A stretch of 64,000 nucleotides of DNA from Micrococcaceae bacterium (GCA_047606545.1 JASGEI010000014.1:18043-82042), one strand, 5' to 3'. Counted from the stretch's first letter, positions 31,417 through 61,834 are shown. The notes: generated by a model not told the origin, from the sequence alone. Program-made: numbers and translations.

Positions 31417-33615
31417 TTATTGAGTTGCATTATTTTTATTCCACGAACGTTTAATTTCATTAGCCAAAGGCACTTTAATTGTATTAACAAAATTATTGCT
31501 TAGATGATGCCCGTCATAATAAATAGGCAATCCGTTTACTGCACCGTGGCATTGGATACCACAGATAAAATCATCCATATTTACTATACTTACCCCTGAA
31601 ATTGTCTGATTCTTCACTATGTCAAACTGCTTATCATCGATATCAGCGTCGCTAGGAGTATAAGTACAGTTTTCGAGATTATATTTATTTATTTCAAGAC
31701 AATCACGCCCAGTGTAGTCTCTATTGTAAGGAGTATCTTTAATATAAGTTATAGTTTTACTATATTTTTTTACTTCTTTAATTCTACTTGGAACTCGCTT
31801 TTCTAGAATACTATCTGTTTTAGTTTTAAGTTCAGCAATTGTCTTGTTAGATAAGGTGAAACTACCTTTATTTTTATCACTTGATATTGTTGGATTTTTA
31901 ATATCATCTAAATATTCAGAATGTGCAAAATTGGAAACTACAACATGAGTGGGCTTGTAAGTCTTTAAATATTTCATTATTTGTTTATTAGCTTCATTAC
32001 AACGGCTAGTATAGTCTGAAAATAAATCGTCTTCTTCAGAATAAAATAGCCGTTGTCCACTAATATCGATAAAAGGGCAGGAAGAAGCTTGATATGCATC
32101 AACGTTCATTTTTTGTTGTTTTGCAAGTTGAATTACCCCGGGAGACCATTGCATGCTGTGCGAATCCCCGACTAATAAAATATCACGTTTCTTATTCTTA
32201 GGATTATAGTTACAGTGTACTTTTCGGCCCCATTTCTCTTCAGAAACCTTGCACTTACTATCAAGCTTAAAAGCATTATCAATATATGAAACATTCGGTT
32301 TTAATGGCGGGTCAAATACTTTGGAATTACAATTAGTTTCTATTGAAACCATGGTCTTACCTTGATAGCAAGTGCCTGAAACAGCCTCTTGAAAAGCAAC
32401 ATTTTCACCACTCAAACGGTATTTAATAGCATAACTTTGACTGAAATTTAAAAACAAAATAACAATACAGCTTGCCACGAAAACTATTCCAGAAAACTCA
32501 GCAGTGGCTACCACAGACCTATATCTTTGTACTGGTTTTTCAATATAATAATGCGTGAAATGCGCTAGTAGTATCGTCACAAAAATTGCAAAAAACATGC
32601 CGCAAATACTTAGGTTTTTAGGGTGTCCCATATCTGAAAATATTGAGACACCAAAATAAGGAAGTAATAACAATACTGGCAAATGCCACAAGTAAATAGG
32701 GTAAGAAATATCCCCAATGTATTGGAATAGAATAAATCTTTCAAATTTCCTATTTGTTTTAGGTGTACCAAGATAAATTATTATTAAAGTAGCTATTACT
32801 GGAGTTAGAGTACCAATACCAGGGAATATTACATTTTCACTGTAGAAAATCCCGCATAAAATTAATAATAAGTACGAAAAATATACTAAAAGAGTAGTAA
32901 CAATATTCCATTTAACTACTCGCGGCAAGAAGCTAATTAAGCCACCAGCAGCAAACTCCCACAGCCTAGCAAAAGTATTGAAGTAATTTGGAGTTCCCTG
33001 TGCCCATGATTCAGCAGAATAATACGGGATTGCAATTAATAACGCATACCCTAGGCTAAGGACTATAACTATAGTTAAAATGACTGGAATTACTTTATCT
33101 AATTGATAATTTTTAAAAATTAAAGGAATTAAAAACAAAATTATCGGTATCAGAATATAAAATTGTTCTTCTACACCCAATGACCAAAAATGCTGATATA
33201 ACTCAATAGCTTTATCTGGGACAAAGTAATTTGTCTTTTCATTCATAAGGTGAATATTTTCGACATAGAACCAACTAGCTAGAAAACTCTTATGTAATCC
33301 CTTAACCAAATGAACTGGCACCACAGTCAATGCAATGGCAAAGGTAGTAATCAGCACTATAAAAGCAGCAGGCAATAAACGCCAGGCTCGTTTTAAATAA
33401 AATTTTCCAAGTTTAAATGTTCCTCGATTTATGTCTCTGACAATATGTCCAATAATCAAATATCCTGAGATGACAAAAAAGATGTCAACCCCTAAGAAAC
33501 CTCCTGCAAGTAAACCTAAATGATTAAGGAATACGAAAAGGATTGCAATAAAACGTAAAAATTGGATATCAACGCGAAAAGTAACCTCTCGACGGAAGTT
33601 AGCGCGCAACATCAA
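31417..33615 (-). CDS. Acyltransferase-3 family O-acyltransferase with C-terminal SGNH/GDSL-like domain (OafA/YrhL-like)
   Basis: 732 aa, about 10 TM segments, ISYPIYLWHLPV, then LLVGDSHSMQW and ...YYDGHHLS blocks. Very AT-rich. Confidence 0.8.
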   Translation of the reverse strand: MMLRANFRREVTFRVDIQFLRFIAILFVFLNHLGLLAGGFLGVDIFFVISGYLIIGHIVRDINRGTFKLGKFYLKRAWRLLPAAFIVLITTFAIALTVVPVHLVKGLHKSFLASWFYVENIHLMNEKTNYFVPDKAIELYQHFWSLGVEEQFYILIPIILFLIPLIFKNYQLDKVIPVILTIVIVLSLGYALLIAIPYYSAESWAQGTPNYFNTFARLWEFAAGGLISFLPRVVKWNIVTTLLVYFSYLLLILCGIFYSENVIFPGIGTLTPVIATLIIIYLGTPKTNRKFERFILFQYIGDISYPIYLWHLPVLLLLPYFGVSIFSDMGHPKNLSICGMFFAIFVTILLAHFTHYYIEKPVQRYRSVVATAEFSGIVFVASCIVILFLNFSQSYAIKYRLSGENVAFQEAVSGTCYQGKTMVSIETNCNSKVFDPPLKPNVSYIDNAFKLDSKCKVSEEKWGRKVHCNYNPKNKKRDILLVGDSHSMQWSPGVIQLAKQQKMNVDAYQASSCPFIDISGQRLFYSEEDDLFSDYTSRCNEANKQIMKYLKTYKPTHVVVSNFAHSEYLDDIKNPTISSDKNKGSFTLSNKTIAELKTKTDSILEKRVPSRIKEVKKYSKTITYIKDTPYNRDYTGRDCLEINKYNLENCTYTPSDADIDDKQFDIVKNQTISGVSIVNMDDFICGIQCHGAVNGLPIYYDGHHLSNNFVNTIKVPLANEIKRSWNKNNATQ

Positions 33616-33721
33616 TAACCTACTTTTTAAAATTAGAAAATTTTATTAAGAATATTTAATATACTAGCATTTACACAATAGTAGAGCTTAATAAACATTA
33701 GTTTTAAGTACAATTCATTAT

Positions 33722-34687
33722 ATGCACGACAATATTGATTTACTCTTAGCACGACAAAATTCTAAAGGAAAAATCATCGCAATTGATGACGAATATAACT
33801 ACTTAAAATCTAAACTCAACATAAAGACTTTTAACGACAGTAAACTAACTAACTCAGATAGTGAGATAGTTGAAACATTATCTAATGCATCCACGGTATT
33901 GCTGCGCATGCCAAAATCTATTGATAGATTAGCCGAATATGCTGAATTAATTGCTCAAAATTGTAATCCTGAAGTTACGTTACATGCTTGTGGCAAAGAT
34001 AAATACATGAACAGGAACTTTAATAAAGTTTTGGAAAACCACTTTGATATTGTAACGGCTTCATTAGGCTGGAAAAAATGCCGTGTTATCAGTGCCACAA
34101 AAGTTAAAGATCAAGTAATTTCAACTTTTCCAAAAATTATCTTAAATAAAGAATTAGATTTACAAGTCGTATCACATGGTGGAGTCTTTGCTGGAACTAA
34201 ATATGATATTGGCACTCGTACTTTCATTGATACTCTTAAGGACATCATTTTTACTGGATTAGGAGCTGATTTAGGCAGTGGCAATGGCCTAGTCAGTGCT
34301 TTCTTACTTAAGAATAATCCTCAATTAAAAATCGAAGCTAGTGACGATTCCTACTTTGCATACTTATCGACAAAAGAAACCTTAAAATTAAATGGATTAA
34401 CAGCAAAAGTAAGCTACGAGCACTCACTTAGTAATATACCTAACAATTACTACGATTATATTTTCTTAAATCCACCTTTTCATGCAGGAACTAAAGTAAT
34501 ACCCACTGTTGGTATTGAGTTAATAACTAATGCTAAACAAAAATTAAAAACCGGTGGAACTCTTTACTGTGTCTATAATTCCATGTTGAATCGTTACTAT
34601 TTACCAGAGTTCAAAAAATTTAATGGCAAAGTTACACACTTAACGCAAAATCGTAAATTTATTGTAAAATCCGTGACTAAAAGTTAG
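33722..34687 (+). CDS. Class I SAM-dependent methyltransferase, RsmC/RlmG-like (MTS domain)
   Basis: DLGSGNGLVS (motif I) and FLNPPFH (NPPF/Y motif IV) in the C-terminal half. Confidence 0.6.
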   Translation: MHDNIDLLLARQNSKGKIIAIDDEYNYLKSKLNIKTFNDSKLTNSDSEIVETLSNASTVLLRMPKSIDRLAEYAELIAQNCNPEVTLHACGKDKYMNRNFNKVLENHFDIVTASLGWKKCRVISATKVKDQVISTFPKIILNKELDLQVVSHGGVFAGTKYDIGTRTFIDTLKDIIFTGLGADLGSGNGLVSAFLLKNNPQLKIEASDDSYFAYLSTKETLKLNGLTAKVSYEHSLSNIPNNYYDYIFLNPPFHAGTKVIPTVGIELITNAKQKLKTGGTLYCVYNSMLNRYYLPEFKKFNGKVTHLTQNRKFIVKSVTKS

Positions 34688-35754
34688 AAACTCTTATAAG
34701 CTTCCATAGATTTTGCGTAAAGATTATCTTGATTAAATTCTATTTTTACACGTTCCACGGCAGCTTGCCCCATTTTAATTCGCAGCTTTGAGTCCTTAAT
34801 TAATAGCCGTAATTTCTCAATAGTCTCATCTATATCTTTACACACAAAGCCCGTTACTTTATCTTCCACTACGTCACGGTTACCAGTAATATCTGTAACT
34901 ACTGCAGGAAGACCTACTCCTTGAGCCTCAATTACTGCAACTGGTAGGCCTTCCCATAGTGAAGTAGAGAGATAAATATCCATATTCGGAATTTTCCCAA
35001 CAATTTCATCACCAGTTTGCCAACCAGTAAACTCAATAGCATTACCGCTAATCCAACCATCAGAAGTGTCTCGTTCACCAACCCAATAAAACTTTGCCTC
35101 TTCTTTAAGTAACTCAGCAATTTTCTGCCATTTCCATGGTGCTTTTGCATAAGTAACTCGGGCCACGATACCAATTACCGGTTTTTCTACTGATTTTTGA
35201 TAATCTTTTGCTGGCAATTTGTGCACATCAACGACATTATGTAAAACTGTAACTTTTTTAGCTTTCAGTTTAGTTTTAGCTAATTCAGCTTCAGATTCTG
35301 AAACACAAATGACTCCGTCGCATTTACGTGCTAATACTGTCTCAATTATCTGGAAAACCTTACGTGCTTTTTCACTTTTATCTTGCATTAAAAATGACCA
35401 ACCATGTGGTGTATAGAAAACTTTATATTTTGAATTTCTTCGTAAGGAAAGACGACCCACAAAACCAGCAAAAGTTGAATGGATATGCACAACTTCTGGC
35501 TTTGTGTTTTTAATAGTTTCTCGCAAAAACTTTGCAAAACCAGGCATATGTTTTGGTGAAGAGGCTTTATTTTCAAAACGGAAAAGCTCTACATCAATAA
35601 GCTCACTATTAATCTTTGCTTCACTTAATGTATCTGGGCGCACTGAGTAGCACACTGCGACCTGCACGCCATGCTTAGCTTGTTCATTAGCTAAAGTCTT
35701 AACTGCTGAATAAACACCTCCAGCAAAAGATTCCACAACATGAAGAATACGCAC
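34684..35754 (-). CDS. Family 4 (GT-B) glycosyltransferase
   Basis: MRILHVVESFAGG N-terminus and EGLPVAVIEAQGVGLPAVVTD C-terminal motif. GTG start with an aaggtggg RBS. Confidence 0.8.
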   Translation of the reverse strand: MRILHVVESFAGGVYSAVKTLANEQAKHGVQVAVCYSVRPDTLSEAKINSELIDVELFRFENKASSPKHMPGFAKFLRETIKNTKPEVVHIHSTFAGFVGRLSLRRNSKYKVFYTPHGWSFLMQDKSEKARKVFQIIETVLARKCDGVICVSESEAELAKTKLKAKKVTVLHNVVDVHKLPAKDYQKSVEKPVIGIVARVTYAKAPWKWQKIAELLKEEAKFYWVGERDTSDGWISGNAIEFTGWQTGDEIVGKIPNMDIYLSTSLWEGLPVAVIEAQGVGLPAVVTDITGNRDVVEDKVTGFVCKDIDETIEKLRLLIKDSKLRIKMGQAAVERVKIEFNQDNLYAKSMEAYKSF

Positions 35755-48840: not shown

Positions 48841-49665
48841 CTACTTCACCTTCTTGCAATTCTTGGAGAAATAACCATCAGCTATACTATTACCATTATC
48901 TAAATCCCAAGTATAGGGTTTTGTTTCAGATACTTTACCTTTTAAGGTTGTTTTCTTGCCATTACTACTAGTGCATTTGAAAGTGTATTCAACACCTAAC
49001 TTATTCTCTTTATACCATTCGTTGTCTGTAGGCAATTGCTTATTTGTAATAGTTCCATACATATTTTTCCAAGCATCTGTACCAGTTCGCTTATTATTTT
49101 TTGGAAAAGACATAACAAGAGTTTCTGCCGATTTAGAATAGTCTCCATTAAAATAAACAGCATATCTAACTTTGCCTCCAATTAACTCTGCTAATTGTAC
49201 ATCTATATCTTCCGGCTTTACTTTTTTAGTAAACTGATAATTTTCTTGTGTTAAAGGAGCAGCTTTAGGGTCACGCCATTTTTTAACATCTTTAGCCCAT
49301 TGCTCCCAACCACCTTTATTAGAGTAATCAGCATGCCAAGTTTTAACATATTCAGCGGAGTAATTATCTCTACCTTCTCTATACTTTATTAACCCTTTAG
49401 CTCCTGGGTCTCCACCTTCTTCTGATTCAGGATTAGGCTCATTGGGAACTGTCTTAACTGGAGCAGACGTTTCAGTATCAGCAACTACTGTGGTAGTGGG
49501 ATTAGCAGAAGCACTAGGAGTTTTATCTCCAGTAAAATCATCTATTTTAGCGTGCTTAAAGTCAGGCTTCATAAAACTATAAATTGCAATACCTAGAATA
49601 ACCAACACACTAGCAATAATAGCTAGAGTTTTCTTAAAACTTGAATGTTCTTTATTTTCACGCAT
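48841..49665 (-). CDS. Membrane-anchored extracytoplasmic protein, unknown function (gene 6 of the zinc-ribbon operon)
   Basis: N-terminal signal-anchor TLAIIASVLVILGIAIYSF, then a P/T/E-rich linker and a roughly 190-aa domain with no recognised motif. Confidence 0.6.
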   Translation of the reverse strand: MRENKEHSSFKKTLAIIASVLVILGIAIYSFMKPDFKHAKIDDFTGDKTPSASANPTTTVVADTETSAPVKTVPNEPNPESEEGGDPGAKGLIKYREGRDNYSAEYVKTWHADYSNKGGWEQWAKDVKKWRDPKAAPLTQENYQFTKKVKPEDIDVQLAELIGGKVRYAVYFNGDYSKSAETLVMSFPKNNKRTGTDAWKNMYGTITNKQLPTDNEWYKENKLGVEYTFKCTSSNGKKTTLKGKVSETKPYTWDLDNGNSIADGYFSKNCKKVK

Positions 49666-49705
49666 AAATCAAGCAGCTATCTTTCATTACAGAAAACCTA
49701 CACGA

Positions 49706-50836
49706 CTACTTAGTTATTTTTATAGTTTTAGCTATTTCTACAAATTGTTTATATAAATCACTATTTACTTGATTAGCAGCAGTTTGTTTTGCGGAATCTT
49801 CACTCTTTAGAGAGCTAGAACCATTACTTGTAGCTTCAAAAGTCATTTTTCCAATACTTGTACGCACAAATCCCGCACTATTAGTAAAATCACTAGTACA
49901 GTATTCGCCCCCATTACCCATTGCATGATCCGTGATAACCATTTCTGTACCCCAATCATCTTGCCCAAAAGGTTCTTCAAAGTAACGCACTAATGCTCTT
50001 GGCGATAAATCAGGAGTACCAGCAGTATTATTTAACGGACTATTTCTTGGATTTCCAAAATTATCTAAAGTCTGGAAATCTGCAGTACCATAAGGTTTCT
50101 TTGTCCCCATGTCACACTTAGTATCTAAATCAAAAGTGTCATTTACTGCATTTGCATCTGGCTCAAGTTTTAATTCATATTTTGCACTTGCAGCGGAATC
50201 TGGTGAGTTCAAAAAGGCAAGATCATCAGGAGTGTTTACCATTAAGTACGTTCCTTTTGGAACAGTTACAGTATACCCACTAGAAGACGTGTAAGTTCCA
50301 CCACCTTCATATACATTACTAGAACCCGAGACCTTTTTGAGCAAGCCATTCGTAGCTGCGATATCATCTGTCGAACTTTTTTCAGTAGAAGTTGGTGTCG
50401 ATGTTGGTGTCGCCGTAGAACTTGAAGTTGGAGTAGCTGATGTAGTAGGTTCAGAAGATGCCTTATCTTTACTCTTAAAGTAAGATACACCAAAATAACC
50501 ACCAATGCCAATAGCTAAAGCTACAGCTACTGCACCGATACCGTAAGTAACATTTTTGTTTATACTAATACTTTTTTTAGTTTTAACGCTTTCAGAAAAT
50601 TGACTCTCCTCATTTTTAGCAGAGTTCTTATCTACAGTATTTAAAGTTTCATTTTCAGTTTTTTCAGGAAACTTACCTTCAGAATTAACAGAAGAATCTT
50701 TTTCGTCCACTAATGGAATATCTTCCGTCTCAGCTTCTTCATGACTGTTAGAAATATTTTCTACAGGCGTGCCACACTCGCTACAGAACTGTTCATCGTT
50801 CTTAAGTTTATTTCCACATTCACCACAGAATTTCAT
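49706..50836 (-). CDS. Zinc-ribbon / single-pass membrane protein with extracytoplasmic domain (gene 5)
   Basis: CGECGNKLKNDEQFCSECG at residues 4-22, TM VTYGIGAVAVALAIGIGGYFGV, S/T/P linker, about 220-aa C-terminal domain. Confidence 0.7.
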   Translation of the reverse strand: MKFCGECGNKLKNDEQFCSECGTPVENISNSHEEAETEDIPLVDEKDSSVNSEGKFPEKTENETLNTVDKNSAKNEESQFSESVKTKKSISINKNVTYGIGAVAVALAIGIGGYFGVSYFKSKDKASSEPTTSATPTSSSTATPTSTPTSTEKSSTDDIAATNGLLKKVSGSSNVYEGGGTYTSSSGYTVTVPKGTYLMVNTPDDLAFLNSPDSAASAKYELKLEPDANAVNDTFDLDTKCDMGTKKPYGTADFQTLDNFGNPRNSPLNNTAGTPDLSPRALVRYFEEPFGQDDWGTEMVITDHAMGNGGEYCTSDFTNSAGFVRTSIGKMTFEATSNGSSSLKSEDSAKQTAANQVNSDLYKQFVEIAKTIKITK

Positions 50837-50851
50837 AACTTATAACTCCTT

Positions 50852-52864
50852 TTACTTACCTACTGGAACTAACATGTATGGAGCATTATCATCTTTAGAA
50901 AACACCCAAACTTTGTCATTGTTGTTAGCAGGTAATAATGGGTGTTTTTGCCCTAATGATTCCATTTTGTTATTTGCAATATCAAATTTCACGGCTTCCC
51001 CATTGTGCCCAGTACCATAAGCAATACCGTTGTTATCAATGACCTTGAATGTAACACCATCAGTCGGAGAAGTAATCTTATGTCCAGGTGCTTGGTATCC
51101 TTTTTCAGTCTTAATCAGAACATATTTACCATCAGGAGAAGTTATCAAGTCAAGATTTTCATCTGTATTCGAATCCTCGCTGCTTGAACTCTCTGAATCT
51201 AAACTAGCTGTTGCTCTAACACTACTGGATATCTTTACTGGACTATCTATCTTTTCTGGATTCATTTTTTCGTAAGGGACTTCAGCACCAGTTTTAGCAT
51301 CATAAATCTTTTCTGCAGTGGGACTGAAACAGTAATCTCCAAGAATTCCTACACAAAGAGGCAACTGTTTCACGTCTGCATCAACAGAACTTGAATCATC
51401 AAAGTACTTATCGCCCTCTTTCGACCATAGGATTTTATTATTAGTGTTATCCCAAACTCCAGAACTATAGAAGGCGGTTTCTCCATACATAGAACTATAG
51501 AAGGCGGTTTCTCCATACATAGAACTATATGACTCACTGTAAGGACTAGTCATAGCTATAAACGGCGTGTAGTTGCTATTACTAGAAGGGCCGAGTGTAA
51601 TAAAATCATCACTACTACTTGAAGAATTCATTGAGTCAAAAACCTCTTGTGCTTTATCCGGCATCTTTGCTTTTACTTGGGCAATGATTTTATTTTCAAG
51701 AGGTTTAGTAAGCTGATCATCAATTTTCTTTGTCTTAGCTTCTTGAGTAGTTATCTCACCAGTTTCTGGATTAAAAATATTTGTCGAAGTATAGTCTGCT
51801 GAAGCAGTTTTATTCGGCTCAATATTTTCTTTGCCTTCTTGATGTTCAAAAAAACTTAAATACTGATCTTTGGTTTCGCCAGTAGCACTAGTCGCAGTAG
51901 CAGCTTTTTGACTTTCATAGTGGATTTGTAATCCCTTTTTTCCATTCACATCAAAGACGTTATATTCAGGAAAACTTCCTTTATCACTTTCAGGATTTCT
52001 AGTACGATCTGAAATTGGTTTAGCAACCCACTTTGTTTTACCATTAGTGGAGTCAATAGCCGTAATATCGGTAACAGTATCCATATAGTTACTATCATCG
52101 GAAGATGAACTAGTCGAACTACTCTGGGTACCATATTTCTGCTTAATAATAAAAGTAGTATCACCAACAGAAGCAATTTTAACTGTACTCCCTGTATCCT
52201 CAGTACTAGGTTGAATTAAAATACATTTTTTCTTGTTTGTAATATCTTTCAGTGGACCATCTGCAGTTGTATCACTGGGAGTATAGTTAGGATTTTTTTC
52301 AGGATTTGCATAATCATCAACATCACATTTTTTTGCTACTTCATCTGGCCTAGATGCAAATAAATCAGTCGATGCAGCATAAGCTCCGAAGCCACCCGCT
52401 AATAAAGCAACAGCTGCTCCACCAGCAATGAATAGCTTCTTTTTATCTTTTGAAGAACTGTGTTGTAACTTTTCAGAAAGAATTTTTATTTTACTAGTTT
52501 TATTGTTTTCTTTTTTAACAGCTGTGTCAGAATCCTTTGATTTTTTAGCATCAACTTTTTCTACTTTTACAGTCTTTACATTCTCGCCAGTTTTGCCTTC
52601 AGCAATACTTTTTTCTTCAGACGTACTACTATCTACTTTTTCTGGCTTTTTATCGATATCTTTGTCAGAACTTAAATCATTATCATTTACAGGTTTCTTA
52701 GCATTATTTGAGAGAGCAGTTTTACTAACCTTTTTGTTATTATCTTTTGATTTTTTCTGTTTTTTATTTTCCTTGACCGTTGTATTTTCTACTTTAGTTC
52801 CACAATTTGGACAAAACTTAGCTTCTGGTTTTAATTTATTGTTACAGTTCTCGCAGGTACTCAC
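50852..52864 (-). CDS. Zinc-ribbon / single-pass membrane protein with large PQQ/BamB-like beta-propeller-type ectodomain (gene 4)
   Basis: CENCNNKLKPEAKFCPNCG at the N-terminus, about 130-aa K/D/S-rich linker, TM LFIAGGAAVALLAGGFGAYAA. The ectodomain has AIDSTNGKTKW and NNKILWSKE repeat signatures. Confidence 0.7.
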   Translation of the reverse strand: MSTCENCNNKLKPEAKFCPNCGTKVENTTVKENKKQKKSKDNNKKVSKTALSNNAKKPVNDNDLSSDKDIDKKPEKVDSSTSEEKSIAEGKTGENVKTVKVEKVDAKKSKDSDTAVKKENNKTSKIKILSEKLQHSSSKDKKKLFIAGGAAVALLAGGFGAYAASTDLFASRPDEVAKKCDVDDYANPEKNPNYTPSDTTADGPLKDITNKKKCILIQPSTEDTGSTVKIASVGDTTFIIKQKYGTQSSSTSSSSDDSNYMDTVTDITAIDSTNGKTKWVAKPISDRTRNPESDKGSFPEYNVFDVNGKKGLQIHYESQKAATATSATGETKDQYLSFFEHQEGKENIEPNKTASADYTSTNIFNPETGEITTQEAKTKKIDDQLTKPLENKIIAQVKAKMPDKAQEVFDSMNSSSSSDDFITLGPSSNSNYTPFIAMTSPYSESYSSMYGETAFYSSMYGETAFYSSGVWDNTNNKILWSKEGDKYFDDSSSVDADVKQLPLCVGILGDYCFSPTAEKIYDAKTGAEVPYEKMNPEKIDSPVKISSSVRATASLDSESSSSEDSNTDENLDLITSPDGKYVLIKTEKGYQAPGHKITSPTDGVTFKVIDNNGIAYGTGHNGEAVKFDIANNKMESLGQKHPLLPANNNDKVWVFSKDDNAPYMLVPVGK
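51461..51530 (-). repeat. In-frame 30-bp tandem repeat, 2.3 copies, inside the 670-aa gene
   Basis: agaactatagaaggcggtttctccatacat occurs twice exactly, plus a partial third copy. It encodes MYGETAFYSS twice. Confidence 0.9.
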
Positions 52865-52886
52865 AATTAGTATTCCTTATATCAAA

Positions 52887-53294
52887 TTATTTTTTATTAA
52901 AGACTTTTTCGACATCAAGAGCTTTATAGTTTTTAAGCATTTCTTGTAATTTTGGGCTAATTGTACTGCTTGGAATTGCAGCATTTTGTTTCTCAACATA
53001 AGCAGTTATCTCATGTTGAAAAGTACTGGCTTTCGTAGAAAACTCTTTCTTAAATTTTGTAGTAAGTTCAGTCAAGCTTTCTTTATATTTCTGTATATCT
53101 AAAGTTTTAGCTTCGGAAGCGACTGCTTCCACTTTTGGTGTAGTCGTAATTGTTTTAGCTTGTTTATAATCACTAGTTGCGTCGATAACAGTATTATTGT
53201 TATTAGCTATCTCAGCAACCTCTACTTTAGTGCCACATTTTGTACAGAATTTAACTCGGCTTACATCATTGCCACAGTTCATACAAAAATTCAT
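52887..53294 (-). CDS. Small cytoplasmic zinc-ribbon protein (gene 3)
   Basis: CMNCGNDVSRVKFCTKCG at residues 4-21. The remainder is predicted helical and has no TM. Confidence 0.6.
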   Translation of the reverse strand: MNFCMNCGNDVSRVKFCTKCGTKVEVAEIANNNNTVIDATSDYKQAKTITTTPKVEAVASEAKTLDIQKYKESLTELTTKFKKEFSTKASTFQHEITAYVEKQNAAIPSSTISPKLQEMLKNYKALDVEKVFNKK

Positions 53295-53749
53295 TATGAA
53301 TTTTCCTTCACAGAGCCTTTTTCGGAACTATTAGTATCTTTATTAACAGATTTTTCTAATTCCTGATCCATTTCGTGCACATTTGTCTTATCTTTAAGCC
53401 CAAGTTGGTCCTCTAAAAGAAACTGGGTATATTGAGAATTTCTTACTGTAGCTACTTTGCTATCAAGCCAAATTCGAGTACCAAGAAGTTCTAAAACGCT
53501 CAAGTATATTGAAAAGACAAGCCAAAGAAGCACATTTAATGTAGTATTCGTGGCATCATGAGAGCTGCTACTGCTTCCCAAAAGACCAAAGCCACTCGCA
53601 ACAGCATTTAGCAAACTACTAAGATAATAAACAATATATGCACCACCGAGAATCTGTAACGCACAGACTCCTGGGAATACTTTAAAAAACAATTTCGCTA
53701 AGTTTGTTGTGTCATATCGGTCATAATCTGCATTAAATATACTTAACAT
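53294..53749 (-). CDS. Small 2-TM membrane protein, DUF4282-like (gene 2)
   Basis: Two hydrophobic segments and a charged tail. Its stop overlaps the next start. Family resemblance is tentative. Confidence 0.5.
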   Translation of the reverse strand: MLSIFNADYDRYDTTNLAKLFFKVFPGVCALQILGGAYIVYYLSSLLNAVASGFGLLGSSSSSHDATNTTLNVLLWLVFSIYLSVLELLGTRIWLDSKVATVRNSQYTQFLLEDQLGLKDKTNVHEMDQELEKSVNKDTNSSEKGSVKENS

Positions 53750-53757
53750 TATTTTCC

Positions 53758-54198
53758 TTAGTGAGAGAATGCGGCAAAGATACGGCCAAGAATAAGAGCA
53801 AATAGAATGATATCTACCGAAGAAATAATTAAACCTGTTATAGCAAAACCTCTAGGTTTACGGAATAGTCCAATGATAGAAAGAACCCACCCCAGGAAAT
53901 AACAAACCGGCCCTAACAACGGAATCCAACCAAAAAATAAACCAACTAAAGCTAAGATAAAACCGAAGAAGCCTACAGTATTTTTTTGTTTTACTTCAAT
54001 TTGATTTTGAACCACTACGTGAGTTACTCCGTTAGGAGTGTTAGCAACTTGCTGATCATAAAGAGGGCCATTAATATTGCTATTTGTTTTATGATTAACA
54101 TTGGCATTAATAACTTGATTACCAACAGCTGTACCGCAATTTACACAAAACTTTGCACCCAGTTTTAAATTCGCGTTACAATTTATACAATTATCCAT
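53758..54198 (-). CDS. Zinc-ribbon protein with C-terminal DUF4190-like 2-TM domain (gene 1)
   Basis: CINCNANLKLGAKFCVNCG at residues 4-22. C-terminal GFILALVGLFFGWIPLLG...LSIIGL...GLIISS. Confidence 0.65.
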   Translation of the reverse strand: MDNCINCNANLKLGAKFCVNCGTAVGNQVINANVNHKTNSNINGPLYDQQVANTPNGVTHVVVQNQIEVKQKNTVGFFGFILALVGLFFGWIPLLGPVCYFLGWVLSIIGLFRKPRGFAITGLIISSVDIILFALILGRIFAAFSH

Positions 54199-54255
54199 TT
54201 TGAACTTTCGTTGATTTTATTTATTCGTCATTTTTAAATGAAAAGCAGTATATAT

Positions 54256-54286
54256 ACTATACCCCCCCCCTTACCAGGGAAATCAA
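54256..54286 (-). promoter_or_regulatory. Candidate sigma-70-type promoter of the zinc-ribbon operon with a G9 tract in the spacer
   Basis: Minus strand: TTGATT (54286-54281), 19-nt spacer tccctggtaaGGGGGGGGG, TATAGT (54261-54256). The -10 lies 58 nt upstream of the ATG at 54198. Confidence 0.45.
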
Positions 54287-54456
54287 GCGAGGGTCTAGGC
54301 TATCATGATAAGAAATTTAATTTATACTTCAATCTTAGACATACATTATGCGACCACTATAGAAGAGAAACCATACCCCACTCCCCTTGACTTGATTTTT
54401 AGGCTAGTACCTAGCTGCAGTACCACTCATATACTTAATAGAACAGACTTATATAT

Positions 54457-54485
54457 TTGACTATCTTAAAATGCTCTAATAGTAT
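54457..54485 (+). promoter_or_regulatory. Candidate promoter of the divergent 54549 gene
   Basis: TTGACT, 17 nt, TAGTAT, about 64 nt upstream of the ATG. Confidence 0.45.
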
Positions 54486-54548
54486 TCAACTTTGATATGA
54501 TTATCGTATTATTTCTTTGTATTAATTAACTTTATTGTGTGAGGCAAA

Positions 54549-55616
54549 ATGAAAAAAAATATTAGAGTAGTAGCTTTATACCCTAAAGGACTACAAACTG
54601 GTGGCCCTGAAGCCTTTCATCAACTTGTTTCACAATTAAATACAGAAGGGGTTAGCGCATATTTAGCTGCTATCCCAGAAACTGAAAAAGAAACCCCTGT
54701 AAAACAATATGCAATCTATAACTGCCCAGAAATCAAATTTTCAGAAATAGAAGATACTGATATCATAATCTCACCCGAGTCTCGGAATTATATAAACTAC
54801 TTATTGGATATGAAAAATGAACATAAGTTTATTTGGTGGGTCAGTGTTAATTACTCTCCAACTTTCCCAAAATTACAAGTTGTAGATTCAATTCCGGTAT
54901 TATTGCGTTCAAATTTGAATCCTTTAAATCCAAAAGGTAAAGGTAATATATTAAGCATTGGCATGAAAGTTCTGAGGTGGCGTGCTAAAGATCCTAAAAA
55001 GTATCAAAACAAAATAAAAGAACATCCAGAAATAATGCACTTAATACAAACTGAATATTCACGTAATTGGGTTAAGAAGTGTTTCAATACTGAGGGTATC
55101 CCACTTATAGACTACAAGAATATGGTAGGGATAGATTCTAATGCTAATAAAAATAAAATGCAGATTGCTTATAGTGCCACTAAAGACCAGGGATTAGTCG
55201 AAAAACTCTTCCGAACCCTACCTGAATTTAATTTTATTGGCATTAAGGATATGAGTTATAAACAAGTCCAAAACACACTTAAAGAAAGTCAATATTTCTT
55301 AGACTTCGGACCACAACCAGGAAATGATGGTTTACCTCGTGAAGCTGCTCTTAACCAATGCCTAGTTGTTTTAGCAAACCGAGGCGCTGTAGCAGATAAC
55401 GATATTGATTTTCCAATAAATAATATTTGTAAAATTCCTTATGATAAAAATATTATTGCAAATACTACTAAACTGTTTAAAGATATAGCAGCTGATAAAA
55501 GTTATTACGAAAAGCTTTATACCTCACAAGCAACTTATCGAAATAAAGTTCAAAATGAAAAAGAAATTTTTAAAGAGCAAGTTAAATATCTAACTACAGT
55601 TTTCAATCAGCTCTAG
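54549..55616 (+). CDS. Hypothetical protein, possibly a divergent GT-B-fold glycosyltransferase
   Basis: N-terminal RVVALYPKGLQTGGPEAF and a C-terminal G..GLPREAA.. segment loosely resemble GT4 motifs. Very AT-rich. Weak call. Confidence 0.35.
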   Translation: MKKNIRVVALYPKGLQTGGPEAFHQLVSQLNTEGVSAYLAAIPETEKETPVKQYAIYNCPEIKFSEIEDTDIIISPESRNYINYLLDMKNEHKFIWWVSVNYSPTFPKLQVVDSIPVLLRSNLNPLNPKGKGNILSIGMKVLRWRAKDPKKYQNKIKEHPEIMHLIQTEYSRNWVKKCFNTEGIPLIDYKNMVGIDSNANKNKMQIAYSATKDQGLVEKLFRTLPEFNFIGIKDMSYKQVQNTLKESQYFLDFGPQPGNDGLPREAALNQCLVVLANRGAVADNDIDFPINNICKIPYDKNIIANTTKLFKDIAADKSYYEKLYTSQATYRNKVQNEKEIFKEQVKYLTTVFNQL

Positions 55617-56367: not shown

Positions 56368-58941
56368 TTAAAGCTCTGGCTCTTCGGCAGTAGTTTTTTC
56401 ACCATTGTCTGGGTTTTCAGCAACACCTGAAGTACCAGTTTCACCACTCTTACTACCAGTGAAAGAAAATTCTTTGTTTTCACCTTCTGTAACCACATCA
56501 ACTCGCACCGTTTCACCAGGTACTAACTCTTTGAACAAGATACGTTCAGCAAGTTGATCCTCAATATCACGCTGGATAACTCGACGTAGTGGACGAGCAC
56601 CCATTGATGGATCGTACCCACGTTCAGCCAATAACTCTTTTGCATCGTCAGAGAGTTCAATCTGAATATCCTGTGGAGTTAAACGCTTTTGCAATTTACC
56701 GACAAACATATCCACGATTTCACGGATTTCTTTACGGTTTAGCTGCGGGAATACAATTACTTCATCAACACGGTTAAGCATCTCTGGGCGGAAGTGCTCC
56801 TTCAATGCTGTTTGTACTTTACCTTTCATCAGGTCGTAACCTGTTTCTGGGTTTTCATCTTGTTGAAAACCAGTCTGTACACCACTAGAAGTAACAGCAG
56901 AACCTAGGTTAGTAGTCATAATGATTACAGTATTCCTAAAGTCTACTTCGCGCCCCTTACCATCTGTTAAGTGACCTTCTTCAAGGATTTGGAGCAAAGT
57001 GTTATAGACATCAGGATGGGCTTTTTCAACCTCATCAAATAGGACTACTGAGAATGGTTTACGGTGCACCTTTTCAGTTAATTGTCCGCCCTCTTCATAT
57101 CCAATATACCCAGGAGTAGAGCCAACTAGACGAGATACGGTATGTTTTTCACCGAATTCACTCATATCTAGCTGAATCAGTGCATCTTCGTCATCAAAAA
57201 GGAACTCAGCAAGTGCTTTTGCTAGCTCTGTCTTACCAACCCCAGTAGGACCTGCAAAGATAAATGAGCCATTTGGTCGCTTTGGATCTTTTAACCCAGC
57301 ACGAGTACGCCTAATTGACTGTGACAATGCTTTAACCGCACGTTCTTGCCCAACAACACGCTTGTGAAGTTCATCTTCCATCTTAAGCAGGCGAGTAGAT
57401 TCCTCTTCAGTAAGCTTGAATACTGGTACACCAGTTGATTGTGAAAGAACTTCCGCAATTACTTCTTCATCTACAGTAGAAATCGTATCTAACTCATTAT
57501 TCTTCCAAGCAGAATCCTTCGCATTACGCTCTTCAATCAGTTTCTGTTCTTTGTCACGAAGAGCCGCAGCTTTCTCGAATTCTTGCCCATCGATAGCGGA
57601 TTCTTTTGCCAAACGTACTTCTTCAATCTCACTGTCTAATTCTTTAACCTCGGGAGGTGAACTTAAACGCTGAATACGTAATCTAGCACCAGCTTCGTCA
57701 ATCAAGTCGATAGCCTTATCTGGCAAGAAACGATCATTAACATAACGACTAGAAAGGCTAACTGCAGCATGAATCGCACCATCGGTAATAGTTACTTTAT
57801 GGTGAGCCTCATAACGGTCACGTAGACCTTTCAAAATCTCAATAGCCTGCTCTGGGCTTGGCTCGTCGACTTGAATTGGTTGGAATCTACGCTCTAATGC
57901 ACCATCTTTTTCAACATATTTACGGTATTCTTCCAAAGTAGTGGCACCGATAATCTGGATTTCACCACGGGCCATCATCGGCTTTAGCATCGAAGCTGCA
58001 TCCACTGAACCTTCAGTAGTAGAGCCTGCACCAACTAATGAGTGAATCTCATCAATGAATAAAATAATGTCACCACGAGTCTGGATTTCTTTAAGAACTT
58101 TCTTTAAACGTTCCTCAAAGTCACCACGATACCTAGAACCAGCAATAACTGCACCCAAATCAAGAGTATATAGATGCTTATCTTTCAAAGTATCTGGAAC
58201 CCGACCAGCAGCAATGTCTTGGGCAAGACCCTCAACCACAGCAGTCTTACCAACGCCTGGTTCACCTGTCATCACTGGATTATTTTTGGTACGACGTGAA
58301 AGCACCTGCATCATGCGTTCTACTTCTTTTTCACGACCAATTACTGGATCTAACTTATTCTCACGAGCTGCAGCAGTTAAGTTACGACCAAACTGGTCAA
58401 GCACAGTAGAACCTGATGCAGTACCACGAGCCCTACCACCAATACCAGCGCCAGCCCCAACAGTATCATTGCTTGAGCTTGAATCTGAACTTTGAACTGA
58501 ACCTTGGAAACCGTTACGCAAGTTAATTACCTGATGCCTAACCTCAGAAAGATCAGCACCTAGTTTCACCAGAATCTGTGAAGCCATAACTTCTGGCTCA
58601 CGAATTAACCCAAGCAACAAGTGCTCAGTGCCGATGTGGTTATCACCAAGCTGCAATGCTTCACGCATCGAGCTTTCCAAAACTTTCTTTGCACGAGGTG
58701 TAAATGGAATGTGCTCTTGTGGCACTACATCACTTGGACCAATAGCATCATTAACTTCTTCACGAACTTTTTCTAGTGTGATACCAAGCTCTTTAAGCGC
58801 TTTTGCACCAATTCCTTCACCTTCATGGATTACTCCAAGTAGCATGTGCTCAGTGCCAATGTAATTATGGTTAAGCAAACGTGCTTCTTCCTTAGCCAAC
58901 ACCAAACATCTACGGGCTCTGTCAGTAAATCTTTCGAACAT
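56368..58941 (-). CDS. clpC: ATP-dependent Clp protease ATP-binding subunit ClpC
   Basis: Two Clp_N repeats, two AAA+ modules ([16 protein letters not shown]), UVR-like linker; 857 aa. Confidence 0.97.
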
Positions 58942-59058
58942 TCAATCTTCCCCTTGCACTTTGCATACGAAAATCTCTATGTTTCAAACTGTACTTGGTA
59001 TTACCGACAAAATACATACAAAAGTACAATTGTTCGCTATGGGCGTGGAAAATAAAAA

Positions 59059-60874: not shown

Positions 60875-61834
60875 CTAGCAATTCAAAGCCATCTGCCTTG
60901 TAATAATTGTTTTCGATAATGCTGGCACGTAACTAACTAGTTTTGAAAGTAAATCCAAAGGATTGTGTATAGTTTTCCAATCAAGATGCACTATATTATA
61001 TCCATTAGCGATAACTTTTGCATCGCGATCTCGTTCGTGATCAATTTGTTTCTTAGCATCACCATATTTTCCATAGTATTTTTCATTTCCGTCAAATTCT
61101 ATAATCAAGTTAGCAGCAGGAAAATAAAAATCTGTACGATATTTTGAACCAGAGACATTTACACAATATTGCATTTTAAGAGTAGTTAAACCAATTTTTG
61201 CTAATGCAATTCTGCATAGAGTTTCACCTGGAGATTCAGCTTTAGGAGTGCAATTACTTATAATTTTCTGAATTCGGCTCGTAGCGTTACATGTTTTGAA
61301 GCTACCAAAACGCTCTTGGAGTTGTGTTTTTGTAATTTTGTATTTTCGGCAAGCACTATCAGCAACGCATAACGCTATTTCATAACTGCATTCTCTGGCA
61401 CAATCTAATACTGTATCAATTACGTCAGTATGAACAATAGTAGAGGTGGTAACTGTATTGCATTTTTGTAAGTAATGATGGAATTTTACTAGGTTATTTC
61501 TAGAATTTTTCTTATGTGTGACCCTGAAATGCATTGTATTTTGATAATAAGGAACGCTTAAATTGAGAATATAAGCTGCAGATATATGGCTAATAATCGG
61601 ATCTTTTAACGTGGTGACAACAGCTAAGAGTTTTACCAAGTACTTTTCATAGACATTTAGTTGGGCATAAACATCTTTTGCGATGTATCTTCCCGCATGC
61701 AATTTTGTCATTTTTCCAGCATTTATTTCTTTGTAAAGGCTATTATTAGAAAAATTACTTTCAGGAAAATTCTGTGAGCTGACGATGTGGCTAGCTAAAA
61801 AAGATAATTGTTCTGTAGACATAATAACAATCAT
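60875..61834 (-). CDS. AbiEi-like N-terminal domain / DUF559 (Vsr-like PD-(D/E)XK endonuclease fold) protein
   Basis: The C-terminus RTDFYFPAANLIIEFDGNEKYYG...ERDRDAKVIANGYNIVHL fits the DUF559 pattern. The N-terminal half has IISHISAAYILNL, typical of AbiEi_4-type domains. The start may be M1 (61834) or M5 (61822). Confidence 0.65.
   Translation of the reverse strand: MIVIMSTEQLSFLASHIVSSQNFPESNFSNNSLYKEINAGKMTKLHAGRYIAKDVYAQLNVYEKYLVKLLAVVTTLKDPIISHISAAYILNLSVPYYQNTMHFRVTHKKNSRNNLVKFHHYLQKCNTVTTSTIVHTDVIDTVLDCARECSYEIALCVADSACRKYKITKTQLQERFGSFKTCNATSRIQKIISNCTPKAESPGETLCRIALAKIGLTTLKMQYCVNVSGSKYRTDFYFPAANLIIEFDGNEKYYGKYGDAKKQIDHERDRDAKVIANGYNIVHLDWKTIHNPLDLLSKLVSYVPALSKTIITRQMALNC

Follow-up and report, generated by a model that had tools for sequence, protein, structure and literature searches.

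What kind of genetic unit is the compact set of six genes lying between disA and clpC in a genome annotated as "Micrococcaceae bacterium", and does it deserve to be regarded as a new envelope-spanning system? The window, i.e., the whole stretch of DNA analysed here (64,000 nt; GCA_047606545.1 JASGEI010000014.1:18043-82042), comes from a metagenome-assembled genome (MAG), and the six genes (g1 to g6) occupy its positions 48841-54198. A previous sequence-only reading of the window depicted them as a co-transcribed module coupling cytoplasmic zinc ribbons to surface-exposed domains, proposed a sensor, scaffold or surface-variation role, and ranked them as a candidate for an undescribed system. 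Our answer is that the zinc-ribbon block is a lineage-specific island of orphan genes with a known architecture, and not a conserved new system. On balance, the operon is probably a lineage-specific accessory for variable surface decoration or remodelling, in which the zinc ribbons would serve as structural or interaction modules, and whose expression is possibly phase-variable. The genes of the block, together with one repeat inside g4, are the following:

53758-54198, minus strand: g1, an open reading frame (ORF) of 146 amino acids (aa)
53294-53749, minus strand: g2, an ORF of 151 aa
52887-53294, minus strand: g3, an ORF of 135 aa whose start shares 1 nt with the g2 stop
50852-52864, minus strand: g4, an ORF of 670 aa with a GTG start
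51461-51529, inside g4: a perfect 30-bp tandem duplication (2.3 copies), encoding SMYGETAFYS twice, in frame
49706-50836, minus strand: g5, an ORF of 376 aa
48841-49665, minus strand: g6, an ORF of 274 aa

The layout had been correctly read. The six minus-strand ORFs are packed at these coordinates with spacers of 8, -1, 22, 15 and 40 nt from g1 to g6, and the block converges with disA and diverges from a glycosyltransferase-like gene, both as previously claimed. Shine-Dalgarno sites (AAGGA/AAGGAG) precede g2-g5, that of g2 being AAGGA, and no convincing internal terminator was found in the block. The six genes are operon-like, and their packing suggests that they are co-transcribed. The region's eight proteins in GenBank (MFT4186216-223, locus tags QM613_03180-03215) carry the names "zinc ribbon domain-containing protein" or "hypothetical protein".

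A zinc ribbon is found, as proposed, at the start of four of the six products, but the spacing given for it ("N10/11") has to be amended: the motif is CX2C-X10-CX2C in g1, g4 and g5 (residues 4-21), and CX2C-X9-CX2C in g3. PF13240 (Zn_Ribbon_1) was the only family that the Pfam scan of the block products found, at the extreme N-terminus, scoring 28.3 bits in g4, 27.4 in g5 and 25.6 in g3 (cut-off 25); g1 reaches 24.8 bits, 0.2 bit under the cut-off. NCBIfam produced only sub-threshold N-terminal matches, to the SCO2400 family and to TcaA; PHROGs produced only phrog_2546 (function unassigned), which covers the zinc ribbon, the linker and the transmembrane (TM) helix with a best E=7e-8; and PADLOC-DB contained no match at E<=0.1 for any of the eight proteins. 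Apart from RadA, no further ORF of the 64 kb window has an N-terminal CxxC..CxxC pattern, and in 41 related disA loci (~0.7 Mb) such ORFs are confined to the RadA genes and an unrelated ORF of 137 aa (locus L039). Because four of them stand here within 4.5 kb, versus their near-absence elsewhere, the clustering of zinc ribbons is non-random. The zinc-ribbon DNA of g1 (54122-54157) is 67% identical to that of g4, and the zinc-ribbon DNA of g3 (53221-53256) is 83% identical to that of g4 (52788-52823) over 36 nt; this last identity hints at a local duplication of the 5' module, by which the N-terminal zinc ribbon may have spread within the block.

The topology of the products, with TM segments called by hydropathy, agrees in most respects with that first described. 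In g4 the zinc ribbon (residues 4-21) is followed by a 120-aa K/D/S-rich linker, a TM helix (144-162) and a 490-aa beta-rich orphan ectodomain; in g5, the zinc ribbon (4-21) is followed by an acidic linker, a TM helix (~97-120), an S/T/P-rich stalk and a 210-aa orphan ectodomain. The description of the 376-aa and 670-aa products as zinc ribbon, linker, one TM helix and large ectodomain is therefore correct, and both helices have more Lys/Arg on their N-terminal side, i.e., a positive-inside, N-in arrangement. The fourth zinc-ribbon product was said to be soluble and is so, g3 consisting of the zinc ribbon and a soluble tail with no TM helix; g6 is indeed a signal-anchored ectodomain protein (signal anchor TM 14-32, T/P/E-rich stalk, 180-aa ectodomain). 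As for the small proteins, g1 continues after its zinc ribbon with a ~50-aa N/Q-rich linker and 2-3 hydrophobic segments (77-137), while g2 has no zinc ribbon, a strong TM segment at 71-89, weaker ones at 22-57 and a charged C-terminal tail. The "DUF4190-like" label that had been attached to g1 is not sustained, the C-terminal part of this protein matching PF13828 with E=0.57 and 10.4 bits, far under the cut-off of 35; g2 matches DUF4282 (PF14110) weakly (E=0.0017, 19.3 bits versus 27, over 74 of the 86 profile positions). The cytoplasmic Cys residues of g3-g5 are the four zinc ligands and no others, and the ectodomains contain four (g4), two (g5) and two (g6) Cys; such even counts fit folded, disulfide-bonded exported domains. 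Disulfide bonding is the typical reading for actinobacterial secreted proteins.

The ectodomains have no detectable relatives. For the g4 ectodomain (residues 180-670), an exhaustive HMMER phmmer search against 1.84 billion representatives returned the self-match alone; the search with full-length g4 was swamped by low-complexity words and likewise returned only the self-match, and g4 had no exact counterpart in the contig index. Word-indexed searches of a 5.8-billion-cluster index found no relatives of the g5 ectodomain, and nothing but g6 itself for g6. Each of the region's eight proteins is a singleton at 90% clustering among ~15 billion proteins. In the scan of the Joint Genome Institute (JGI) metagenomes, g6 had no relative and the 214-aa protein encoded beyond the block had one distant relative; in the tblastn comparison with phage and plasmid collections, g2, g3, g5 and g6 were without match, and g1 had one weak match, in the archaeal Halosolutus (E=0.01). 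The conserved "system" of the sequence-only reading thus meets its own counter-case in a stronger form than scattered homologues without conserved co-localisation, and the orphan status of g4, g5 and g6, together with the lack of the block in the closest relative (see below), speaks against the notion of an undescribed system.

The fold of the largest ectodomain had also been the object of a specific proposal, namely that g4 displays PQQ/BamB-like propeller signatures. The g4 ectodomain found no family in Pfam at E<=10, its PQQ and propeller profiles included, and self-comparison for internal blade repeats yielded only Ser-rich low-complexity matches, so that the proposed signature has neither profile support nor detectable internal repeats. 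Sequence searches of the PDB came back empty. Foldseek comparison of a g4 model with the PDB gave no match at E<=0.001, with TM-scores of ~0.1; the weak list consists mainly of WD40, BamB (4imm) and BT4663 propellers, which we do not count as evidence. By eye, motifs such as AIDSTNGKTKW, IFNPETGEIT and IYDAKTGAEV can be picked out in the ectodomain. Altogether, a propeller fold for g4 is at most faintly hinted at.

The chromosomal context of the block is best appreciated by comparison with related genomes. A scan for DisA, at one genome per species, provided 56 loci, the closest of which belongs to another Micrococcaceae MAG (hereafter L001; DisA 95% and ClpC 97.5% identical, DNA 88-90% identical). 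The features involved in this comparison are:

49268-55614: strain-specific segment of 6,347 bp, replaced in L001 by an unrelated 621 bp (L001 11661-12281)
47567-48682: disA, downstream of the block and convergent with it (Pfam DAC and DisA-linker; NCBIfam DisA, E=4e-140)
54549-55616, plus strand: 355-aa glycosyltransferase-like ORF, divergent from the operon and within the strain-specific segment
55624-56268: gene of a 214-aa membrane-anchored protein, beyond the 355-aa ORF
56368-58941: clpC, beyond the 214-aa gene

By blastn, collinearity between L001 and the window breaks off after 49267 and resumes at 55615. The segment in between contains the N-terminal half of g6, g5-g1, the intergenic region upstream of g1 and the whole 355-aa gene. 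What L001 retains of g6 is a truncated remnant without the anchor (a 115-aa ORF), and only the C-terminal 140 residues of g6 have a counterpart there, 83% identical in protein. No remnant of g1-g5 could be found in the L001 replacement by relaxed blastn, tblastn or blastx, even at E<=10; the replacement contains the reading frame, interrupted by one frameshift, of a small protein that has a signal peptide, a C-terminal hydrophobic segment and an RRKK tail, which points to another kind of surface-protein cassette, perhaps a decayed one, in this position. In L002-L010 and in more distant Micrococcales, a homologue of the 214-aa gene directly follows disA and converges with it; since disA adjoins this gene elsewhere, the block has been inserted between disA and the 214-aa gene/clpC, and the earlier claim of an insertion between disA and clpC is borne out by the gene order of L002-L010. 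At least for g6, the insertion goes back to an ancestor shared by the window genome and L001. One gene further on, between clpC and lysS, L001 carries a 3.4-kb insertion (L001 15715-19162; at 59047/59053 of the window) with no window counterpart, which codes for a restriction endonuclease of the AlwI type and for a D12-class adenine methyltransferase in two fragments; with this restriction-modification cassette, the neighbourhood can be seen to collect accessory cassettes. The comparison with L001 also offers an estimate of selection, restricted to the g6 C-terminus as the one stretch with a comparator: nonsynonymous divergence (dN) is 0.074 and synonymous divergence (dS) ~1.4, with dN/dS ~0.05, a noisy value obtained from 84 synonymous sites. 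Despite the noise, this low ratio clearly points to purifying selection on the g6 C-terminus.

Unlike its ectodomains, the architecture of the block, with a cytoplasmic zinc ribbon, a TM helix and an ectodomain, is already described in TcaA, in Llmg_0524/0526 and in YARHG proteins. In Lactococcus lactis, the operon llmg_0524-0525-0526 encodes a 2-TM and a 1-TM protein, each with an N-terminal CX2CX10CX2C, and has between them a short gene that lacks the motif (Roussel et al., 2015; PMC4628341); the motif has been shown to bind zinc, as a stable structural site and not a sensor, and the mutants have a cell-wall (lysozyme) phenotype (PMC4628341). The block resembles this operon in g1 (zinc ribbon and 2-3 TM segments), in g2 (small, with no motif) and in g4/g5 (zinc ribbon, one TM helix and ectodomain), as well as in having no other recognisable domain; the likeness is one of layout, motif and TM counts taken by description, and zinc chelation is here a prediction. 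It differs in having four zinc-ribbon proteins, one of them soluble, a signal-anchored protein and orphan ectodomains, in gene number, and in belonging to another phylum. Staphylococcus aureus TcaA likewise has an intracellular zinc finger, one membrane span and its bulk outside the cell, and is involved in wall teichoic acid retention and glycopeptide sensitivity (PMC10328498). Products of the block share with TcaA (NF053815) the intracellular N-terminal zinc finger, the single span and the large extracellular domain; nevertheless, only residues 1-36/40 align, with 11.7-13 bits versus a cut-off of 550, and the ectodomains are unrelated, so they are not family members. YARHG proteins also consist of a zinc ribbon, a TM helix and an extracellular domain, a layout widespread in Gram-positives for which a role as membrane-tethered transcription factors has been proposed (PMC3355149); as in this type of protein (PF13240), a zinc ribbon lies inside and a variable domain outside, but g4 and g5 have no YARHG or other known extracellular domain. 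Finally, the SCO2400 family (NF049861) matches g5 with 27.8 bits over residues 1-111 and g4 with 17.4, both below the cut-off of 55, and this match does not extend beyond the zinc ribbon, linker and TM helix.

A further element of the locus lies upstream of g1, where a homopolymer may govern the expression of the operon:

54286-54256, minus strand: promoter-like TTGATT-N19-TATAGT, the spacer of which contains a G9 tract; candidate slipped-strand phase-variation switch
54199-54548: intergenic region of 350 nt, presumed regulatory, between g1 and the divergent glycosyltransferase-like gene

On the minus strand, this site reads TTGATT-TCCCTGGTAA-GGGGGGGGG-TATAGT; from its end to the g1 ATG there are 57 nt, and from the end of the G9 tract 63 nt. 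The tract (C9 on the plus strand, G9 on the minus strand; 54262-54270) is the only G/C homopolymer of at least 7 nt in the 64 kb, and the longest of any base. With independent, identically distributed bases, the expectation for runs of at least 9 nt is 0.07, and the window is in fact depleted of G/C runs (2 runs of at least 6 nt observed versus 7.6 expected). A long homopolymer is accordingly present between promoter hexamers upstream of a surface gene; the loss of one or two G would shorten the spacer to 18 or 17 nt, the present 19 nt being 1-2 nt off the optimum. Homopolymer slippage is known to govern surface genes in Actinobacteria, such as the pili of Bifidobacterium breve (PMC9187656), and genes of Mycobacterium tuberculosis (PMC10334774), and homopolymer phase variation in promoters has been described for nspA (PMC6389960) and sabA (PMC2715451). 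Like the phase-variable loci of the B. breve pilus (PMC9187656), Neisseria meningitidis nspA (PMC6389960) and Helicobacter pylori sabA (PMC2715451), the operon has a regionally unique long G tract in the regulatory region of a surface operon; unlike them, the tract is known here from one MAG sequence. The position of G9 in a promoter-like spacer suggests phase variation. In the same 350-nt intergenic region, an RNA element was considered and rejected (no Rfam match, folding z=0.01), and a CRISPR-DR25 match inside disA (23 bits versus a cut-off of 36, E=0.5) was dismissed as due to chance.

On the other side of this region, the 355-aa protein has no Pfam or NCBIfam match, but aligns over 95-97% of its length, with 25-30% identity, to plasmid-borne hypothetical proteins. 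Its homologue in Enterococcus faecalis pN60443F-1 lies in a cps capsule cluster, with glycosyltransferases on one side and genes of a Wzy-like protein, sugar dehydrogenase and flippase on the other; that of Azospirillum has a glycosyltransferase gene, glf, the gene of a GT61 protein and gmd as neighbours, and that of Clostridium felsineum after a macrolide-family glycosyltransferase. A family profile built from five sequences matches PDB 8xsg, a "putative glycosyltransferase", with E=4.2e-6. Given this match and the polysaccharide-cluster homologues, the glycosyltransferase-like label previously given to the gene is reasonable, and the strain-specific segment probably joins envelope proteins with a surface-glycan enzyme.

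How, then, would such an island work? By analogy with the L. lactis proteins, each zinc ribbon would bind one Zn and serve as a module for stable cytoplasmic folding or for protein contact, and through the zinc ribbons g1, g4 and g5 may be linked to the soluble g3. In g4, g5 and g6, the fast-evolving ectodomains would be displayed outside the membrane, where they might alter the surface with respect to cell-wall interactions, adhesion, or phage/receptor exposure; the island and the adjacent glycosyltransferase could remodel the surface together, and slipped-strand mispairing at the G9 tract in the promoter spacer might switch expression on and off. Local expansion, the difference between sister genomes and the possible homopolymer switch support surface variation rather than a housekeeping role, and surface variation fits best among the sensor, scaffold and surface-variation options first raised. 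From the co-transcribed envelope-spanning module then proposed, the packing and the ribbon/TM/ectodomain layout stand, and the dedicated conserved system is not supported. Several points count against this surface-decoration reading. The operon is carried by a single genome, which makes selection on g1-g5 unmeasurable; a TTGATT-N19-TATAGT match arises on its own in 17 of 100 shuffles, and with an alternative promoter-like site further upstream (54332-54305) the G9 tract may lie in the 5' untranslated region; the tract could be fixed in length, or could be a homopolymer assembly error in the MAG. Besides, single-sequence AlphaFold2 models of the ectodomains have a predicted local distance difference test score (pLDDT) too low for use, of 38 for g4, which is mostly modelled as beta hairpins, and of 33 for g5. 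If the reading is true, the operon represents another case, from an undersampled AT-rich Micrococcaceae lineage, of the common and poorly understood Gram-positive envelope proteins with zinc ribbon, TM helix and variable ectodomain, with local expansion to a four-member cluster, a difference between sister genomes at one chromosomal site, and a possible homopolymer switch. Its value is modest, as the operon opens no long-standing question and the orphan ectodomains limit further sequence analysis.

Among the alternatives, an unlikely one that nonetheless survives best is a signalling module, in which the ectodomains of g4, g5 and g6 would sense an external ligand and the zinc ribbons would relay the signal through contact with nucleic acid or with a partner, in the manner of membrane-tethered regulators or anti-sigma-like proteins. 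The layout is that of the YARHG proteins, with their proposed transcription-factor role (PMC3355149), and the soluble g3 could be the cytoplasmic partner; however, no DNA-binding, sigma/anti-sigma, kinase or protease domain is found in or beside the block, a 25-residue zinc ribbon on a long disordered linker makes a poor effector, and the L. lactis motif is a stable structural zinc site and not a sensor (PMC4628341). Furthermore, sensors are usually conserved, and the block is missing from the sister genome.

That the genes are evolutionary debris, i.e., neutral orphans drifting under weak constraint or decaying, open by chance or of recent origin, we hold to be decidedly unlikely. Their orphan status, the K/N/S/T-rich low complexity and low GC at first codon positions (GC1) of the block, the very low AlphaFold2 confidence and the loss of the block in L001 would be expected of such genes, as would the perfect, recent 30-bp duplication in g4, which must be very recent unless it is an assembly artefact. 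On the other hand, a 2-kb frame is very unlikely to be open by chance in DNA of 35% GC. The Shine-Dalgarno sites and the start/stop coupling speak for real proteins, as do the four-Cys motifs, which are intact, the coherent N-in topology and the pairing of Cys in the ectodomains, and dN/dS is ~0.05 in the sole testable stretch, the g6 C-terminus.

The opposite view, that of a dedicated and undescribed multi-protein machine spanning the envelope, whose six co-evolved parts work only together, is highly unlikely as well. It can call upon tight packing with translational coupling, upon the non-random clustering, and upon the four zinc-ribbon N-termini, the in-situ modular duplication of which is suggested by the two that share 83% of their DNA over 36 nt; yet the parts searched (g4 and g5 ectodomains, g6) are without homologues and hence without conserved co-occurrence, the block is dispensable in the nearest relative, and no ATPase, transporter or enzyme was found to power a machine. 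A bolder version of the surface-decoration reading would be a phase-variable envelope assembly nucleated by the four zinc ribbons, with g3 as adaptor, new ectodomain folds (including a divergent g4 beta-propeller) and the glycosyltransferase, which might together form an undescribed surface-variation system unique to the lineage; this we regard as a long shot.

The base composition of the block bears on its origin. The block genes are indeed more AT-rich than the flanking core genes, as had been noted (32-37% versus 40-43% GC), but the foreign composition thereby implied is not there: GC at third positions (GC3) is 0.21-0.28 in the block and 0.21-0.36 in core genes, and the AT-richness comes from codon positions 1-2 (GC1 0.39-0.46 versus ~0.55-0.65 in the core). 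K/N/S/T residues make up 31-40% of g2-g6 and 22% of g1, compared with ~20% in core genes, and equally AT-rich, weakly conserved genes are found elsewhere in the window (an AT3-SGNH acyltransferase at 31417-33615, a methyltransferase at 33722-34687 and an orphan at 60875-61834). With GC3 native, AT-richness marks weak amino-acid constraint under the AT pressure of the genome, and horizontal transfer, considered on account of the AT-richness, was rejected because GC3 equals that of core genes. No integrase, transposase or insertion sequence element, tRNA or flanking repeats were found at the block; readings as a prophage, a mobile island or a defence system were discarded in view of this lack of mobile genes, the native GC3 and the lack of a PADLOC match. 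Cargo of a prophage remnant or mobile element, such as superinfection-exclusion or moron membrane proteins, is accordingly a very remote prospect: it would explain the phrog_2546 match (E=7e-8) and a locus that varies between genomes with a restriction-modification cassette one gene away in L001, but the PHROG matches span the generic zinc-ribbon/TM part alone, tblastn of g1, g5, g6 and the glycosyltransferase-like protein against 50,697 phage records gave nothing, and the mobility genes, foreign GC3 and PADLOC match are all missing.

Some observations on the surroundings are added. The 214-aa gene is a conserved, uncharacterised neighbour of disA: it lies directly downstream of disA and convergent with it in nearly all Micrococcales/actinobacterial loci with a homologue (L002-L014 and others; L021 and L040 differ), and its product is membrane-anchored, with four Cys and a weak BsuPI-like match (16.7 bits versus a cut-off of 22.9). 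As for the host, Micrococcaceae are normally of high GC, whereas the window genome has 40% GC, with a GC3 of ~0.21-0.36 even in rpoB/rpoC and ribosomal protein genes, and is a strongly AT-shifted lineage; the genomes of only two related species were found (L001 and L002), and scanning the JGI metagenomes yielded no related contigs. Within the window, the 319-aa ORF at 60875-61834, which adjoins lysS, has 33% GC and no Pfam match, and may be a further lineage-specific orphan. An envelope-modifying cluster at 31417-35754 comprises the AT3-SGNH acyltransferase (732 aa), a small-domain methyltransferase and a GT4 glycosyltransferase, and its first two genes are as AT-rich as the zinc-ribbon block.

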